In this document: positions 9,368-55,095 of the stretch, one piece after another
Numbering within the stretch: position 1 is the stretch's first letter
How the letters are laid out: each line of letters opens with the position of its first letter
DNA from: a virus
Strand: one strand, 5' to 3'
Length of the DNA: 64,000 bases
IMG/VR virus record: IMGVR_UViG_3300049460_000196
Location: 1 to 64,000 of that record
Made by a program: the position numbers and the translations under genes
The notes under the pieces: model-generated
Seen by the model: only the letters and a program-made list of their open reading frames with translations
Databases searched by the model: none
What the model was told of the DNA's origin: nothing

Positions 9368-10783
9368 TTAAGCTGCCAGCTTGTAGCGGTCAACCATCAC
9401 GGCTTCCAGCATCACGGACATTGGCGAGAAGTCCTTGGCACCCAGCACAGCTTTCAGGATGGCTGGCGAGAAACCAGATACCAGCGCAACGCCGCTGTCG
9501 TCATAGCGCGTTGGGGCGCTACCATGCGAGTTCAGGTTCCAGAACACGATGTTCGGTGCCTGGTAACCAGCTTCCGCGTACTTGGTGCGGATCATTTCCA
9601 TCGCTTGCACGGAACGGCCCTGGATGCAGTTGTTATCGAACTGCATATCCGACAGGATCAGGATGTTCTCTGGCATGTGCTCAGGTGCAACCTTCTGCGC
9701 CACCGCGATCTTCAGCACTTCCTCGAAAGCCGCCTGGATGTTGGTGTTGTACGCAACCTGCGAACCCATCTGATCCAGTTTCTGGAAGATGTCACCTTGC
9801 AGGTTGTACAGCTTAGGCACGTCAGTGAAGGTCATGAACGTGTCTTTGAACGCACCAGTGTTCTTTTCTGCCAGGTACAGACCCAGCGACATTGCCACAT
9901 TCATGCAGCTAACAGTACCGCTACCACCGGCAGGGCTACCCATCGAACCCGACACGTCAACCATCGGCAGGATAGACGCTTCACCGACGAAGTTTTCCAG
10001 GGCTTCCCACTGGGCAACCATCACCTTGCGAACGGCCTCGTCCATCGAACGACGTTCGTACGCCGTGAACGCACCTTTCAGCACATCGTATGGGTAAACG
10101 GCGCCGCTGTTGATCTTGGCTTCGCCAGTCGTCAGTGCTTCGGCGTACTTAGTGTAAGCGGCTTCAGCATTACGCTTGAACGCTTTCTTGTAGCGAGCAG
10201 CAGCCAGCGATGGCACGTGGCCGAAGTTGATGTTGTCCCAGTCTTTCGCGCACATCTGGGTTTCCACGACTTTCGTCAGGGTCACCAGAGTCTTGCGGTA
10301 GCGCTTAGGCGAGAAGCCCAGGTAGGCACGCAGCTCTTCAGCTACCTTGCCTTTACGTGGCATCCACTTTGCGCACAGGCCGTTACCAGCTTCCAGGCCA
10401 CCTTTGATCAGCTCAAAAGCGTGCTGGCGCAGGATTGGGTGCTTGACGGTCAGCAGGTCATCCCAACGACCGATTTCTGGGATCTTTTGCATGAGCTTCT
10501 GAGCCAGTGCGCTATCCTGGTTTTCCAGGTAACGCAGCACTTGCTTGAACAGCTCACGCTCGCCAGCACCACCGCGAACGTCACGCGCCCACTGCATGAT
10601 GCGCACAGCAACGTCGGCATCTTCCACGAAGGCCGATACAAACGCTGGGATCGGATCTTTACCGCGCATCGCGCCGATATGGAAGAACAGGTCAACACAC
10701 TTGTTCAGCGTGGACTTGTACGCCAGGGCGCCGTTGGTGGTGGTGGTTTCTTGCTCGTTGATTGCTTGTGCGAAAGTAGTCAT
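9368..10783 (-). CDS. TROVE/Ro60-related helical-repeat plus vWA protein (DUF2828-type)
   Basis: N-terminal TTNGA, RDVRGGAGER, GRWDDL, AKWMPR; vWA MIDAS DVSGSM, ILSDMQFD, VFWNL, SGFS. Confidence 0.88.
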   Translation of the reverse strand: MTTFAQAINEQETTTTNGALAYKSTLNKCVDLFFHIGAMRGKDPIPAFVSAFVEDADVAVRIMQWARDVRGGAGERELFKQVLRYLENQDSALAQKLMQKIPEIGRWDDLLTVKHPILRQHAFELIKGGLEAGNGLCAKWMPRKGKVAEELRAYLGFSPKRYRKTLVTLTKVVETQMCAKDWDNINFGHVPSLAAARYKKAFKRNAEAAYTKYAEALTTGEAKINSGAVYPYDVLKGAFTAYERRSMDEAVRKVMVAQWEALENFVGEASILPMVDVSGSMGSPAGGSGTVSCMNVAMSLGLYLAEKNTGAFKDTFMTFTDVPKLYNLQGDIFQKLDQMGSQVAYNTNIQAAFEEVLKIAVAQKVAPEHMPENILILSDMQFDNNCIQGRSVQAMEMIRTKYAEAGYQAPNIVFWNLNSHGSAPTRYDDSGVALVSGFSPAILKAVLGAKDFSPMSVMLEAVMVDRYKLAA

Positions 10784-41618: not shown

Positions 41619-42224
41619 TCAAGTCTTAAATGAAAGATCATGTTCGACCTGTCTTGTCGCCCAAGCTCGTTCACTGCAATGAAAGCATTGACCACATGCT
41701 GGAATTGAGTCATGTTTCGGGCACGACCGAGTCAATTCCAATAATTCAGATAAGCCCAATGTCTCGTACAGGTAAATGGTTGCACGCTTATCGAAGGTAA
41801 CAAATGGAGTGGCATAACCACGATACTTATTATCCATCGCAGTTAAGGGACGAGATGGAGCTGGCCCCGTGTAATCCCAGTCAAACGGATTCTGGGTTAC
41901 ACCTGTGTACAGCCAATCCATAGTTTCCATCGTTTGATAGATGTCACGACGCAGCTTATTGTCGATCAACACGAACTCATGTTCACGAGACTTCAACTCT
42001 ACGTTGAATTGATTTTCTAACCAACCCAACGTATTGCTGATACTTGCATTCTTGAGACCATTACGGAAAACTGTATAGATCTTATCAGGCACCAACCCAT
42101 TTGCCAACAGTAGATACATGAGGATCACACTGTCAGCGCCACCGGAATACGAAATACCCGTTTGTCCTTCATGGATGGGTATTATCACATTCCGGTATGG
42201 AGTTGGATAAATGACTTCGCGCAT
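41619..42224 (-). CDS. QueC-like PP-loop ATPase
   Basis: SYSGGADS, PF...DK, TRSC, CGQCFHCSER. Confidence 0.8.
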   Translation of the reverse strand: MREVIYPTPYRNVIIPIHEGQTGISYSGGADSVILMYLLLANGLVPDKIYTVFRNGLKNASISNTLGWLENQFNVELKSREHEFVLIDNKLRRDIYQTMETMDWLYTGVTQNPFDWDYTGPAPSRPLTAMDNKYRGYATPFVTFDKRATIYLYETLGLSELLELTRSCPKHDSIPACGQCFHCSERAWATRQVEHDLSFKT

Positions 42225-43819
42225 TACGATTTGATACCTTTACTTTGCACCGATTCTTGGTCAACCTCTTCCAAGAATGTGAAAGACGAACTCGCACTCA
42301 ATTCATCCAACAGTGGTTTAATATCGCTACCGGTGGCTTCCTTCGTTGCCAGGAAGAAGTAGATGGGTGGCGACACGAAGGTAATACCTGGGCATTCCAG
42401 CGTAACTCGGAACCACATTTGTTTCACCAGTACACCAACTCCCAAATCTGCATTTGGGTCAATACGAATTTGAACCACGCCCGTGTTAGTCACGAATGAT
42501 TTACTCATGATTGCTTCGATGGACTCGTTACCATACGATAACGAGAAGACTGCATTTTCGCCATTGGCTTGTGCCAACGTACTGGCCGGCATCAACATCT
42601 TGATGTCAACAAACATGCTATCATCCATTCCCAACACTTCAACACCCAGATATTGAATATTGTCATCTGGTAATGAGCTAGTATCTGGACGGTGCAAAAG
42701 CTTATTCTCAGCTTGCGACACATTGGTTTGCAAAATCAACGCATTCAATGTTGCGTCGTCGATGATGGCTTTGGTAACATCAGCTGACAATGGAGCACTT
42801 GAACGCAAACTATACAAGACACTTGCGACACCACTAACAAAAGCTGCCGAGAACGACGAACCAGTATTGGTGCTATATTGATTCGTTGTATTGATAGTTG
42901 GCACCGCAACCATGTCACCTGGTGCATATATGTCAATCTTTTTATTCACGCCATATACGTTGTAGAGCGCACGATCATCTTTCGAACTGGCGGCTACCGT
43001 AAACACACCTGGAATACCAGCTGGGGTAACATCGTCAATGTTGAGATCACTATTGCCAGCCGCAGCTACCACCGTGATACCAGCAGCCAAGAGGGCTGCG
43101 ATCTTTTCATCCAAGTAGGCACTACGCGGAATAGCCCAGCTCAGATTGACTACCTTTGGCACTGTTAGGGTGCTTGTGTGGTGAGATAAGATGGCGTCAA
43201 AGATGTCACCCAATTCACCAAGGGTTGGTTTGCGATCTTTGCTGCTGATCTTAACATTGCTGATTGTTGCGTGTGGATTCATACCCAATGTCGCACCTGC
43301 CACCAATGCCGCGATGGCGGTGCCGTGACCCAAGTCATCAGTGCCATCAGTATAGAAAGGCACGGAGAACAAGTCTTCAATAGCTGTATTGGCAAATTCA
43401 GCATGGGTGGCATCGATACCACTGTCCACGATGATCACTTCGACGGGACGTTGAGGTGTGATGTCGGCAAAATATGGATTAGGGATGAATGGACGATATC
43501 GATTTGCGATGCGATTTTCTGCCCATTTGTTAACTGTGTCATCAGCCAACATCTTGATAGGAGCATCAAATGGCTCCATCACTTCGCCTGCTTTGATGCG
43601 TGGAACTGGATCTGCTTCTTCCTCGGTGACCCAGGTACCGTCATCTTTACGGACGTGGAATTGAATGGCGTCGCCTTCAGTTTCCACTGTATCGATCCCA
43701 TCAAATTGTAGAGCAAGATTGATTAAGCCAATGTTTACTTTGTCAATAGATACTTCTCCGGTCATTGCCAGAAAAGCTGCTTCACGTTCCGATGTTTTGA
43801 ATGTGAGTTTTAAGAACAT
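42224..43819 (-). CDS. S8 subtilisin-like serine protease
   Basis: IVDSG, GHGT, VNLS, AAAGN, TGSSFSA; start trimmed to MFLK after GAGGA. Confidence 0.92.
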   Translation of the reverse strand: MFLKLTFKTSEREAAFLAMTGEVSIDKVNIGLINLALQFDGIDTVETEGDAIQFHVRKDDGTWVTEEEADPVPRIKAGEVMEPFDAPIKMLADDTVNKWAENRIANRYRPFIPNPYFADITPQRPVEVIIVDSGIDATHAEFANTAIEDLFSVPFYTDGTDDLGHGTAIAALVAGATLGMNPHATISNVKISSKDRKPTLGELGDIFDAILSHHTSTLTVPKVVNLSWAIPRSAYLDEKIAALLAAGITVVAAAGNSDLNIDDVTPAGIPGVFTVAASSKDDRALYNVYGVNKKIDIYAPGDMVAVPTINTTNQYSTNTGSSFSAAFVSGVASVLYSLRSSAPLSADVTKAIIDDATLNALILQTNVSQAENKLLHRPDTSSLPDDNIQYLGVEVLGMDDSMFVDIKMLMPASTLAQANGENAVFSLSYGNESIEAIMSKSFVTNTGVVQIRIDPNADLGVGVLVKQMWFRVTLECPGITFVSPPIYFFLATKEATGSDIKPLLDELSASSSFTFLEEVDQESVQSKGIKS

Positions 43820-43820
43820 G

Positions 43821-44762
43821 TTATTCCTCTTTATTAATTTGGGCAAGCGCATGGCGCTCGCGTAGAACTTCCGTGATCTCTTCTGGAAGCTCCAATAAAC
43901 TATCGTATTCTGGATACTTACTGTGATGCGGTAATCTGAAAAACTTTTCAAATGCCCAGCCATCACCAGTCATATTGGCAAAATGTTCTTTCACCAATTC
44001 AAACCCTGTATACTTCTGTTGCTGTGGAATAACACTCAAACCCAATCTGTGCATACCGGTCACCTTCGCGATGTAGCGAAGTGCGATATCGGTTGGCATA
44101 TCGGGCTGAAACAGCATGAAAGGTAAGGCGATGTCAAGTGTATATCCAAGGAAATTTCCTACCAAAGGATATTTATTGATTTCAGCAAACGTCATCCAGA
44201 CACTATGACTGCGATTGGAAATGAACTCCCATTTGCCATCTCTTATACATGGTGGATTGCCGCCGCAAATAATAGCTGATGGAGCAAACCGTTCAATCAG
44301 CATTTCGTAGAAACGGCAATGGGCAGATAGCTGTGGCGATGGACAGTTGTATTTGACCACATAGGATGGAAGGTCGCGGCCCAGAAAACTCAATATGTTG
44401 AAGTCAACCAGCGTGTACTTGAATCTATGTGTTGTGCAAAAGGTGATGGCGGAAGAAACGTCATGGATATTCAGGTCATCACGAAATTGCATAATCACAA
44501 TGGTGAATTTCACATTAGCTCGTCGCAGCAAAAGGCATGCCGCCTGACTGTCAATCCCACCACTCAAGGCAACATATATGTTTGGCCCCAAAGATGCGGA
44601 AACGCTTGCTATTGACGCCTGCTGACGAGCCAGGAGTTCGGAAGGGATATAAGCACCAGTAAGTATATCAAATTGAGCGCCAGCTGACATCCGCCAAACC
44701 AGTTTGTTGACTGGTTCGACCGTGGGGGACAACCATTTTTCATGAAAAATACCTGGGGTCAT
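43821..44762 (-). CDS. PP-loop (asparagine-synthase-like) adenine nucleotide alpha-hydrolase
   Basis: VALSGGIDS, KYTGFE. Confidence 0.7.
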   Translation of the reverse strand: MTPGIFHEKWLSPTVEPVNKLVWRMSAGAQFDILTGAYIPSELLARQQASIASVSASLGPNIYVALSGGIDSQAACLLLRRANVKFTIVIMQFRDDLNIHDVSSAITFCTTHRFKYTLVDFNILSFLGRDLPSYVVKYNCPSPQLSAHCRFYEMLIERFAPSAIICGGNPPCIRDGKWEFISNRSHSVWMTFAEINKYPLVGNFLGYTLDIALPFMLFQPDMPTDIALRYIAKVTGMHRLGLSVIPQQQKYTGFELVKEHFANMTGDGWAFEKFFRLPHHSKYPEYDSLLELPEEITEVLRERHALAQINKEE

Positions 44763-46268: not shown

Positions 46269-46348
46269 TGGTGCGCTTGTGTGGACTTGAACCACAGTGC
46301 GGGTGCAGCAAAAAACCGCCCCTGTTCTACCAGTTGAACTACAATCGC
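46269..46348 (-). tRNA. atypical tRNA with lengthened anticodon arm and U-run loop (Lys-like or undetermined)
   Basis: D-arm GTTC-AACTGGTA-GAAC, GGGGCGG-TTTTTT-GCTGCACCC, T-arm, ACCA. Confidence 0.65.
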
Positions 46349-46387
46349 CATATACAACAAAAGCCGCTTGCGCGGCTTAGTTATTTA

Positions 46388-47575
46388 GTACCACTGAGAT
46401 TACATGGTCCTCGTTGACGCTTCGAACATTATTAGCCAGGATTGCGTCCCAACCTTCTTTCGATATCCACTAGAGCCCCTTTCGGGTAATCTAGTACGCC
46501 AACATCATCGCCGTTTTAAGTCAGGCAGTAGACTTGACACAGGGTGCTATTCTACGACTTTCCATCCGTTGACATTCGACTGCCATTAGAGCTTGCGGGC
46601 CCTACGAACTTCTTTTCATAAACCAACTAGGCCTTGCGAGCTTCGCTGAACTTGATTAACTTTCGTCTCAAGTATTAGATGATTTTCACACCCTGCCGAG
46701 GTAGACTTTGCATTTTGTATAAGTAAACGGTTTGATCGTTCGCTCTTTCTCCAATGAAAGTGCCATTTCTGGCGTGCAACTCACTGCGACGTGCTACCTC
46801 AGCTGCTCCAAAGTCTTTTGGACTCCAGAATACAACACGCCACGTATCTTTCGCCTCGCGGGCTACCGGATCGTCTTTCTCGACTAATGTCCACACCCTT
46901 GCGGATAGTCCACCAACCGATAAAACTGCATCATACCTCTTGGGTGCGACCCCTCGAAACATAACACTACCTTTCCCCGTACAAGATGGCAAGTTGGATT
47001 TGTGATGAGACTCGGCTCCCGCCATGTTCTCCCTCAACTGATGTTCCCTAACGAGCAAGCCCGCTAGGCATCTAAGCCAAGGTTCTTTCCATCACTCTTG
47101 CGTCCCAATTATCTCCAGGATAACCTGAAGTGCTTCCTTTCGGAAGCCGGGTCGGCTTGCATAACAGAACCACTTGCATGGCGCGGCTGCGTGAGCTTGA
47201 CCGCTTTCCCCGGGTTGCCCCGGCTCTTCCTTCCAATATACGGCAAGCCGTATACCGTGGAGCTATGCCCCCAAAACTTGTTTTACTCATAAATTCTACA
47301 AATACCCATTAAAGGAACGGCTGATACTAATGGAGCGACCATTATAAGGTTGCGAACCTCGCAGTGAACAAGTCACCGGCATATCAACTATGCGTTAGTA
47401 TCGTCAGGCAGCCGCACTGGCTGTTACTCCCTATTGTCCACCCGCACACGGAACAATCAACTACCGCGGTCAGGTCGCGTGCCATCAGGCAGTAGGTAAT
47501 TGACGGCTAGGATTTACACCTAGTACGTTCCATTAATGAATACTCAGAAAACACATGAGTAAAACAAATTGCTTA
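46388..47575 (-). ncRNA. large structured ncRNA, GOLLD-like
   Basis: ~1.2 kb with no credible ORF, many GNRA-capped hairpins, long-range helices 47278-90/47556-68, 3' GTAATCTCAG, next to a tRNA, own promoter. Confidence 0.65.
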
Positions 47576-47590
47576 AATTGTCCAAGAACA
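47575..47590 (-). promoter_or_regulatory. boxA-like antitermination element
   Basis: TGTTCTTGGACAATTT versus rrn boxA TGCTCTTTAACAATTT. Confidence 0.55.
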
Positions 47591-47643
47591 TTTTGTTACG
47601 TTGCTTTGTAACCAGTGCTGCGTTGTGCATCACCACAGAACGT

Positions 47644-47672
47644 ATTCTAAAGAAGCCATTTACATCCGTCAA
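47644..47672 (-). promoter_or_regulatory. strong sigma70 promoter of the large ncRNA
   Basis: TTGACG-17 bp-TAGAAT with AT-rich UP-like region. Confidence 0.75.
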
Positions 47673-47735
47673 TACTTTTTTAGAAATAATTTACTTCTTT
47701 TTGCCAACTTATCAAAACACTAGTAACCACGAGCA

Positions 47736-48101
47736 TTAGTCCATGCCTGGATCTGGTGGCCTGTTGGGATCAGCATAGAACACATGGCGATCTTCAGCAA
47801 ATTTCCAAGCCTGAACATTACACACTAGACGAAGCATTACTACATCCGCAGGTGCCAAATCTTCTATGATGTAATAGTGGGTGTTGATACTGCGTGGATC
47901 AACACCTGCTAACTGGACACGTTGCTCGCGCCACAGTTTGCGAATATCATCCACACTCCAGTGGTCTAACCGATCACCCAGATAGCACGTTGAGTAGGCA
48001 TAATACCAGCGATCAGGAAACAGCCCGTCAAGGATTTCATGCAAACGCACGCACTCCACATAGGTGTGCTTGGCAGTGACACGGTTGTTGAGTAATGACA
48101 T
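47736..48101 (-). CDS. hypothetical protein
   Basis: ORF. Confidence 0.55.
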   Translation of the reverse strand: MSLLNNRVTAKHTYVECVRLHEILDGLFPDRWYYAYSTCYLGDRLDHWSVDDIRKLWREQRVQLAGVDPRSINTHYYIIEDLAPADVVMLRLVCNVQAWKFAEDRHVFYADPNRPPDPGMD

Positions 48102-54476: not shown

Positions 54477-54539
54477 CTGCTACTCCGTGTTCGTTTATCT
54501 TGTTCCTATTATAGGCGTAGATGAACAAACAATCAAGTA

Positions 54540-54752
54540 TTAGTCACGTTTGTTTGCCAGTTCGTTCAACTGTTTGCTGAGGTCGGCGTCGGTTTCGGCG
54601 GTGATCACGCCCAGCTTAACCATGTTGTTCATGGTACCACGATACACTTCAAACTCGCGGTTATCGAACGACTCAACCATCACGTGCTCGCGACCAGTGT
54701 CGCTGTCGAAGGTGTCGTAGTTGTGTTTGATCTGCGCGTTGATGATATACAT
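54540..54752 (-). CDS. hypothetical protein
   Basis: AGGAG RBS and promoter. Confidence 0.6.
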   Translation of the reverse strand: MYIINAQIKHNYDTFDSDTGREHVMVESFDNREFEVYRGTMNNMVKLGVITAETDADLSKQLNELANKRD

Positions 54753-54817
54753 GGTCGCTCCTGCATTTGTGTAGAATCACATTATAGACGCAGATGAACA
54801 GAAAATCAAGTAATATT

Positions 54818-54901
54818 TGGTGGACCAGAGCGGAATTGAACCGCCACGACGTCGCGAACGTCTTTCCCAGTGCGGAGGACTTGTACTCACCTGAGTAGCC
54901 C
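54818..54901 (-). ncRNA. degenerate tRNA-like RNA
   Basis: GGCGG-TTCAATT-CCGCT, ACCA end, variable-arm hairpin; D and anticodon arms irregular. Confidence 0.5.
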
Positions 54902-54926
54902 AGCGAAGCACCAATACATGATGCTT

Positions 54927-55003
54927 TGGTGGACTATGGGGACTCGAACCCCCTCTCCCTGGCCCGTAATGATCAGCCTCGTGGGGCTTGTCCCACAATC
55001 TCC
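54927..55003 (-). ncRNA. degenerate tRNA-like RNA (UAC-like loop)
   Basis: GGGG-TTCGAGT-CCCC, TAGTCC-ACCA; non-standard D region. Confidence 0.5.
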
Positions 55004-55095
55004 GCCATTAGATGTAGCGGTGCTGAATCACGCTTCTGAAGCTACTCGCTTGAAGCCGATCATTACGAGCGACTGTTGCCAGTCACCCAGCTGGT

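Follow-up and report, generated by a model that had tools for sequence, protein, structure and literature searches.

The window analysed here is a stretch of 64,000 nucleotides (nt) of viral DNA, the first 64 kb of IMG/VR virus record IMGVR_UViG_3300049460_000196, which is 113 kb long and has a CheckV completeness of ~27%. Nearly all genes of the window lie on the minus strand, as do its tRNA genes, of which there are at least 11. We report on a non-coding stretch of the same strand, at positions 46388-47672, and on the elements that adjoin it; all coordinates given below for the window refer to minus-strand features. The stretch encodes a bona fide GOLLD RNA, an ordinary new member of a known family. 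GOLLD RNAs are among the largest non-coding RNAs of bacteria and phages, and the structure of a GOLLD cage has been solved; we know of no established function for them and of no account of how they are produced. Two features of the locus go beyond the textbook GOLLD: a boxA-like element that recurs at the head of promoter-led GOLLD units, and a lineage-specific, stalk-closed insertion of 296 nt.

The initial annotation of this DNA, made from the letters alone, had likened its 3′ part to GOLLD. This likeness was borne out by the Rfam covariance model RF02032, which matches 46391-46843 over its full length (model positions 1-416 of 416) with 203.1 bits compared to a gathering score of 150 (E = 7e-56), and by the covarying 5′ domain described below. 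Within the 453-nt conserved 3′ domain thus delimited lie a hairpin with an A-rich loop (CAAAAG), the pseudoknot and, at its end, GUAAUCUCAG; the motifs GTAGAATAGC, GACTTAAAACGGCG and GTAATCTCAG all fall inside the match. The stretch is also as dense in GNRA-capped hairpins as had been claimed: the 1253-nt RNA contains 11 with stems of at least 3 bp, compared to 2.9 ± 1.7 in shuffled sequences (maximum 9 in 500) and to 1-4 in equal lengths of adjoining coding DNA. An exact 11-nt direct repeat, UUGGGACGCAA, is found in both the 3′ and the 5′ domain of the GOLLD RNA (46442-46452 and 47098-47108); about 0.3 pairs of such repeats are expected by chance in 1.6 kb, and two were found on the RNA strand.

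Only one sequencing run, a rhizosphere metagenome that is probably its source, covers the whole stretch. A 694-amino-acid (aa) protein encoded in the window shares 51% identity with proteins of phiCbK-like Caulobacter phages and 51-55% with those of uncultured phage contigs, including a complete 360-kb genome. GOLLD was present in one of 30 related phage records (G006), and searches with the neighbouring proteins came up empty in viral, metagenome and genome contigs. Relatives of the RNA were gathered with a pattern derived from the first hairpin of the 3′ domain, which is conserved in the window, in G006 and in phiCbK, and which matched 6 viral contigs, 42 Joint Genome Institute (JGI) metagenome contigs and 7 genome contigs. 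Related or fetched loci are labelled L and sequencing runs X (X2 and X3, DNA relatives; X4 and X5, RNA libraries). Most related loci carry GOLLD inside a tRNA array, with an upstream tRNA, often Arg(GCG), that ends 381-564 nt before the 3′-domain hairpin, a tRNA, often Thr, in the GOLLD linker and a tRNA-Leu after the GOLLD 3′ end. The hairpin pattern also occurs in genomes labelled Thalassospira xianhensis and Pseudaminobacter soli and in metagenome-assembled genomes (MAGs) of Pyrinomonadaceae and Saprospiraceae (L209-L215), so that this GOLLD clade includes hosts, or bins, from several phyla. Short repeats of the GAUUGCCAAUUG type fill the 100-130 nt between tRNA-Arg(GCG) and GOLLD in L185, L190, L193, L195-L197, L199, L210 and L215, a subgroup that includes contigs binned with Pyrinomonadaceae MAGs.

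In the env-38 GOLLD, residues 1-420 form a variable 5′ region and residues 421-833 the conserved 3′ region, the latter being the only part covered by the Rfam model (PMC12286853; PMC12990946). Relatives align with the window from the hairpin GGGGC-AUA-GCUCC onwards (47273-47258, start ~47272), and the 430 nt between this point and the 3′ domain (46844-47273) compare to room for 381-564 nt in the relatives, from the upstream tRNA to the 3′-domain hairpin. RNAalifold, run on an alignment of 15 sequences (the window and 14 loci), returned 122 pairs, 53 of them with compensatory changes; 97.0% of cells pair, compared to 36-43% after a shift of the 3′ partners by 1-3 columns, and none of 500 shuffles reached any of the observed pairing measures. 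The first hairpin itself covaries (CG 10 / UA 5; AU 10 / GC 4). The region 47273-46844 is the GOLLD 5′ domain. Since both alignment and covariation begin at the first hairpin, GOLLD proper extends from 47273 to 46391 and is ~883 nt long; the ~1.2 kb given in the initial annotation was right as to GOLLD and too long for its body, being the length of the predicted primary transcript with its inserted module. In relative X2, the first ~75 nt of the 5′ domain (47195-47269) are replaced by 74 unrelated letters between flanks that are 86-94% identical, a hypervariable patch. The window has two uninterrupted open reading frames (ORFs), 46675-47058 (127 aa) and 47072-47290 (72 aa), and one could take them for real genes and the RNA structure for incidental. 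We give this idea virtually no credence: the frames carry 1-7 stops in 14 of 14 relatives, including 5 in the longer ORF of the 80%-identical locus L200, the sense ORFs have no Pfam match, the 127-aa ORF overlaps the Rfam GOLLD match, and substitutions keep base pairs, not codons.

Ahead of the first GOLLD hairpin, and ~2 nt from it, ends a 296-nt segment (47275-47570) that is predicted, from an inverted repeat and its fold, to form an imperfect stalk of ~42 bp closing a 206-nt multi-branched interior. The arms of the repeat (47275-47319 and 47526-47570) each have 45 nt and, with G-U pairs left out, are 73% complementary; the 13-bp long-range helix noticed earlier, TTGTTTTACTCAT (47279-47291) / ATGAGTAAAACAA (47556-47568), is part of them, and the predicted base of the stalk has 17 continuous pairs. 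The 298-nt piece folds with −107.9 kcal/mol, compared to −80.4 ± 5.2 for 200 shuffles (z = −5.29). Searched against Rfam at E ≤ 10 with permissive filters, the module matched no relevant family (group I intron, tRNA, transfer-messenger RNA (tmRNA), Y RNA, 6S, ROOL and others), the only overlap being with the U12 small nuclear RNA (E = 7.2, 47210-47301), which we take as chance. ARAGORN reported nothing in it, and inspection of its interior revealed no convincing tRNA-like, retron-like or intron-like features. No homologue was found by nhmmer in ~200 fetched loci, of which 48 contain a related GOLLD, or elsewhere in the 113-kb record, nor by blastn in the related loci and seven further genome-contig loci, nor in viral contigs with a pattern from the module's 5′ arm. 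Another pattern, GCTCGCAAGGC...CCGCAAG, matched 120 stretches, none with a blastn match to the unit and only three with a downstream GUAAUCUCA-like motif, and these look like chance. A miniature inverted-repeat transposable element was considered and rejected, as nhmmer found no second copy in the 113-kb record (~27% complete) or the ~200 loci and no flanking direct repeat is evident.

What occupies the junction between leader and GOLLD differs among lineages: a tRNA, nothing, or a homing-endonuclease-like gene. The module is absent there from L175, L201 and L200, and the last of these, whose GOLLD is 80% identical to that of the window over 47009-46394, has unrelated sequence directly before its first hairpin. 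In L162, a 242-kb viral contig, a GIY-YIG-type gene (T5orf172/MUG113, 176 aa; L162:2837-3367, minus strand) occupies this junction, with a boxA-like leader under a consensus promoter on one side and GOLLD on the other. The module is kept in place in X2 and X3, relatives of 86-94% identity that are known from sequencing runs only; one 9,078-nt contig of X2 covers 46547-47195 and 47269-47771, and pieces from X3 lie over both arms. Because the module is absent from ~55 other related GOLLD loci, including L200, yet kept in X2 and X3, we conclude that it is a recent lineage-specific insertion at this junction and not a conserved GOLLD domain. The occurrence of an insertion, a GIY-YIG-type gene or tRNAs at one and the same junction suggests that maturation removes what lies upstream of the first GOLLD hairpin.

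On a rather unlikely alternative, the whole 1.2 kb would be one mature RNA in which the module, remaining attached as an additional 5′ domain, decorates the cage or regulates it. Such a domain would be missing from all other related GOLLD loci, one of them 80% identical; it would lie outside the covarying 5′ domain, at a place where other lineages have processed tRNAs or an inserted gene. In addition, a duplex such as its ~42-bp stalk, with 17 continuous basal pairs, is of the kind typically cut by RNase III. In favour of attachment, the module abuts the first GOLLD hairpin with no terminator in between, is retained in its near relatives, folds far better than shuffles and shares the exact 11-mer CUACUGCCUGA with the GOLLD 3′ domain (46521-46531 / 47485-47495), and the 5′ region of GOLLD is known to vary (PMC12286853). 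The initial annotation had left open whether the 5′ ~290 nt were an extra domain or a separate RNA: the element is real, and the evidence favours a separate, recently inserted module.

Upstream of the module lies a sigma-70-type promoter, TTGACG-17-TAGAAT (47644-47672), which matches 10 of 12 consensus positions and has a predicted start near 47637. Its −35 hexamer is abutted by an A/T-rich, UP-element-like tract ending in AAAAAAGTA (47673-47700, as read from the sequence); both had been claimed earlier and both are present, and a similar A-tract precedes the TTGACA of L175 and L201. Promoter-like sites are not enriched in the region (5 in 2.6 kb compared to 3.0 ± 1.7 in shuffles), so that the match by itself is weak and its placement ahead of the leader is what counts. 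The leader contains a hairpin (GUUAC...GUAAC, 47594-47613, minimum free energy fold) that precedes the boxA-like element in the order of boxB and boxA in ribosomal RNA operons (rrn); L175 and L201 have a different hairpin at this position.

The boxA-like motif reported upstream of the RNA was found at 47590-47578 (TGTTCTTGGACAA / UGUUCUUGGACAA, with the 11-mer core GUUCUUGGACA at 47589-47579), starting 54 nt past the end of the −10 hexamer. The published boxA consensus, GYTCTTTAANA, is gamma-proteobacterial (PMC5725501), and its residues G2, C5 and U6, which make extensive contacts with NusB (PMC3177189), are all kept in the window. Measured from the 3′-domain hairpin, the element lies at −749, or at about −452 once the 296-297-nt module is subtracted, which places it in the same slot as in other lineages: among 42 non-identical related loci, six (L189, L201, L175, L169, L207 and L182) match the consensus with no more than one mismatch between −462 and −422, leaving 10-15 nt to the first GOLLD hairpin, and the matches of L189 and L201 are perfect; the six represent at least five diverged lineages. 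These boxA-bearing lineages are 50-64% identical to each other, except for L175 and L201 (86%), and the Saprospiraceae-binned loci L211 (−462) and L212 (−489) also have the motif. Across the full related loci, such matches number 33 on the sense and 29 on the antisense strand in 249 kb, or ~1 per 8 kb per strand, from which ~0.24 matches are calculated for a 41-nt slot compared to the six seen. In L175 and L201, an A-tract, TTGACA-17-TATACT, a hairpin, boxA and, after ~12 nt, GOLLD follow each other within 80 nt. Motifs that head tRNA arrays in L003, L161 and L213 overlap TTGACA, are perhaps promoters and were left out of the count. We conclude that a recurrent, apparently rRNA-type boxA heads promoter-led GOLLD units, of which the window would carry a weaker form. 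A search of the literature returned no link between GOLLD and boxA; a paper with both GOLLD and 'antitermination' that was checked uses the latter word only in a T-box reference. Two tandem promoter-like repeats precede the boxA of L169 and L182, at ~600-450 nt before the 3′-domain hairpin, an arrangement that recalls the P1 and P2 promoters of rRNA operons. A very degenerate boxA pattern returned only noise from five bacterial genomes.

Relatives of the GOLLD body were also found among RNA-library contigs of two soil studies, which are 93-95% identical to 46388-46695 and 46740-47232. They show presence in RNA libraries and are not proof of transcription. Neither X4 nor X5 has a contig over 47280-47600 or over the flanking genes; because these runs consist of contigs, the gap says nothing on expression of the module. 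X4 record 7 and X5 record 14, from different soil studies, both stop at 46695, just 3′ of the linker, with no loose end, and the DNA run continues past this point; the shared stop hints weakly at an RNA end or else at an assembly break.

Taken together, the locus is probably best explained as a non-coding operon carried by a large phage from soil or the rhizosphere, in which a boxA-like leader precedes an inserted module and GOLLD. The promoter near 47672-47644 would start a minus-strand transcript of ~1.29-1.37 kb comprising, in order, the leader hairpin and boxA-like element, the 296-nt module, the 883-nt GOLLD, a G+C-rich hairpin with a U-run and an aberrant tRNA. The boxA could recruit host NusB and NusE (S10), and RNA polymerase would then, as in rRNA operons, transcribe the long, untranslated, highly structured RNA free of Rho-dependent termination, and folding of the RNA would perhaps be assisted. 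RNase III may cut the long stalk and so remove leader and module, possibly releasing an RNA of ~250 nt from the latter; GOLLD would then begin a few bases ahead of its first hairpin, a maturation comparable to the removal of flanking tRNAs in related phages. The mature RNA would assemble into a multimeric cage, by homology to the env-38 GOLLD. The rRNA-operon-like reading of the initial annotation is supported to the extent that promoter, A-tract, leader hairpin and boxA-like element are in place and boxA recurs before GOLLD in diverged lineages.

Several observations weigh against this explanation. The window copy of boxA, GTTCTTGGACA, has two mismatches to GYTCTTTAANA (U8G, A9G), a gamma-proteobacterial consensus that may differ from that of the host. 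GYTCTTTRANA with at most one mismatch occurs 23 times on both strands of the 113 kb, ~1 per 10 kb, and the window boxA is therefore not significant taken alone; a degenerate pattern gave a single match in the window, in a search that is circular because the pattern was built with the element's sequence in hand. Once the module is removed, global alignment of the window leader with those of L175 and L201 is no better than that of shuffles, and what they share is a layout, architectural and short of demonstrable homology. Because the motif is weak alone and the leader not significantly alignable, support for boxA is positional and comparative. The leader hairpin is not conserved, 12 of its bases being deleted in X2. 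The RNA runs, seen as contigs, cannot show where transcripts start or end, and RNase III cleavage of the stalk and cage formation are steps that we infer. Lastly, the module itself contains another promoter-like site, TTCACT-16-TATAAT (47368-47341).

Transcription of GOLLD from this internal site, with the upstream promoter and boxA serving only the 5′ part of the module, strikes us as improbable. The site scores 10/12 and its −10 hexamer is perfect; however, promoter-like sites are no more frequent in the region than in shuffles, this one sits within predicted helices of the module, and a start there would leave the boxA-to-GOLLD arrangement of other lineages unused. A more serious alternative, though still one we hold to be on the unlikely side, is that the boxA-like motif is no Nus site at all, being either an A/U-rich sequence that matches by chance or a processing site in single-stranded RNA (for RNase E, for example) at the GOLLD 5′ edge, with no antitermination. 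The mismatches of the window copy and the frequency of equally loose motifs in this phage fit such a view, as do the A/T-richness of several boxA-matching loci (33-36% G+C), the GOLLD units within tRNA arrays that have no adjoining boxA motif, and the E. coli 13-mer boxA, which at up to 3 mismatches gives 20 sense and 13 antisense matches and so does not separate the strands. It accounts less well for six loci of diverged lineages, or eight with L211 and L212, whose motif, never more than one mismatch away from a consensus published independently, falls into one slot of 40-70 nt and only on the sense strand. Moreover, two of these matches are perfect, L175 and L201 have 47-48% G+C, and the motif comes after promoters, as it does in rrn leaders.

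The proposed boxA-led operon can be set beside known systems. The env-38 GOLLD, which forms a 14-mer cage solved by cryogenic electron microscopy (Kretsch et al. 2025, PMC12286853), resembles the window in its conserved 3′ domain with A-rich loop hairpin, pseudoknot and terminal GUAAUCUCAG; its cage is known from structure, and cage assembly of the window GOLLD would have its support in the conserved A-rich loop hairpin. The window further shares with the family a variable 5′ domain of ~430 nt, a variable linker, a phage origin and a position beside tRNAs. It differs in the 296-nt stalk-closed module ahead of the 5′ domain, in a linker that is a decayed tRNA instead of an intact one or none, and in having its own promoter and boxA-like leader in place of a position within a tRNA array. 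The GOLLDs of phiCbK-like Caulobacter phages and of Mesorhizobium phage Cp1R7A-A1 come from a related phage lineage, as judged by the ~51%-identical 694-aa protein; their first 3′-domain hairpin is 75-79% identical to that of the window and they score 165 and 193 bits in Rfam, but they have an intact linker tRNA, lie within tRNA arrays and show nothing like the module. GOLLDs of the phiCbK type are already included in a published supplementary alignment (Kretsch et al., PMC12286853). The rRNA operon leader (boxB and boxA, with NusB, NusE, NusA and NusG as well as SuhB) offers the same order of promoter, hairpin, boxA-like element and long untranslated structured RNA with tRNAs, and the window boxA lies ~8 nt before the 5′ strand of the long-range helix, as in pre-16S leaders; in the window, however, the motif is imperfect, the likeness is one of sequence layout alone and the product is not rRNA. 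Like the RNase III stalks and intervening sequences of bacterial rRNA, the module has a long, near-continuous duplex formed by both ends of an inserted segment, but the 206 nt enclosed match no known RNA family and the likeness is one of predicted fold.

Were a boxA conserved at the start of GOLLD units, it would offer the first clue to how GOLLD is produced. If the proposal is true, GOLLD is made like rRNA, by a termination-resistant polymerase that aids folding. One may speculate that promoter-led GOLLDs in general are made by a Nus-modified, rRNA-type antitermination complex, drawn in by the boxA of the leader, that provides protection from Rho and aids folding of these 0.9-kb RNAs, with the module of this lineage as a new GOLLD partner or cargo released by RNase III, although in this extended form we regard the idea as quite unlikely.

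The remaining elements of the unit are remnants or relatives of tRNAs and a hairpin. The variable GOLLD linker (46716-46775, 60 nt) is a decayed tRNA, as judged by alignment to the linker tRNAs of relatives: it aligns column for column with the linker tRNA-Thr of L175, L201 and others and keeps a T-arm-like AACG-AUCAAAC-CGUU (T-loop AUCAAAC), and its D region is shortened, with loss of the D-arm. Neither Rfam at E ≤ 10 nor ARAGORN recognised it as a tRNA. The linker of L200 is likewise a decayed tRNA, and in both the window and L200 a GAAA-capped hairpin stands in place of the D-arm. Downstream of GOLLD, a terminator scan returned a G+C-rich hairpin, AAGCCGCGCAAGCGGCUU, followed by UUGUUGU (46351-46378), which resembles an intrinsic terminator or a processing element and may act as a partial terminator or 3′ stabiliser. 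The region 46352-46381 is identical in X3; in related loci, a tRNA directly follows GOLLD without such a hairpin. An aberrant tRNA-like gene, 43 nt downstream of GOLLD (46272-46348), matches the Rfam tRNA model with 39 bits (cut-off 29) and was not called by ARAGORN.

Upstream of the RNA unit, a 121-aa protein has a 71%-identical homologue (P0002). In phiCbK, a permuted tmRNA (L002:2197-2515, minus strand; Rfam RF04321, 71 bits), absent from the record's feature table, lies directly upstream of GOLLD on the opposite strand. ARAGORN also predicts a permuted tmRNA in the window at 54538-55017, with the tag ASLKCIVVP, which Rfam at its gathering threshold does not confirm. Elsewhere in the window, a protein that combines DUF2828 and DUF7788 domains is encoded at 9368-10783, and a subtilase-family (S8) peptidase of 580 aa at 42224-43966.

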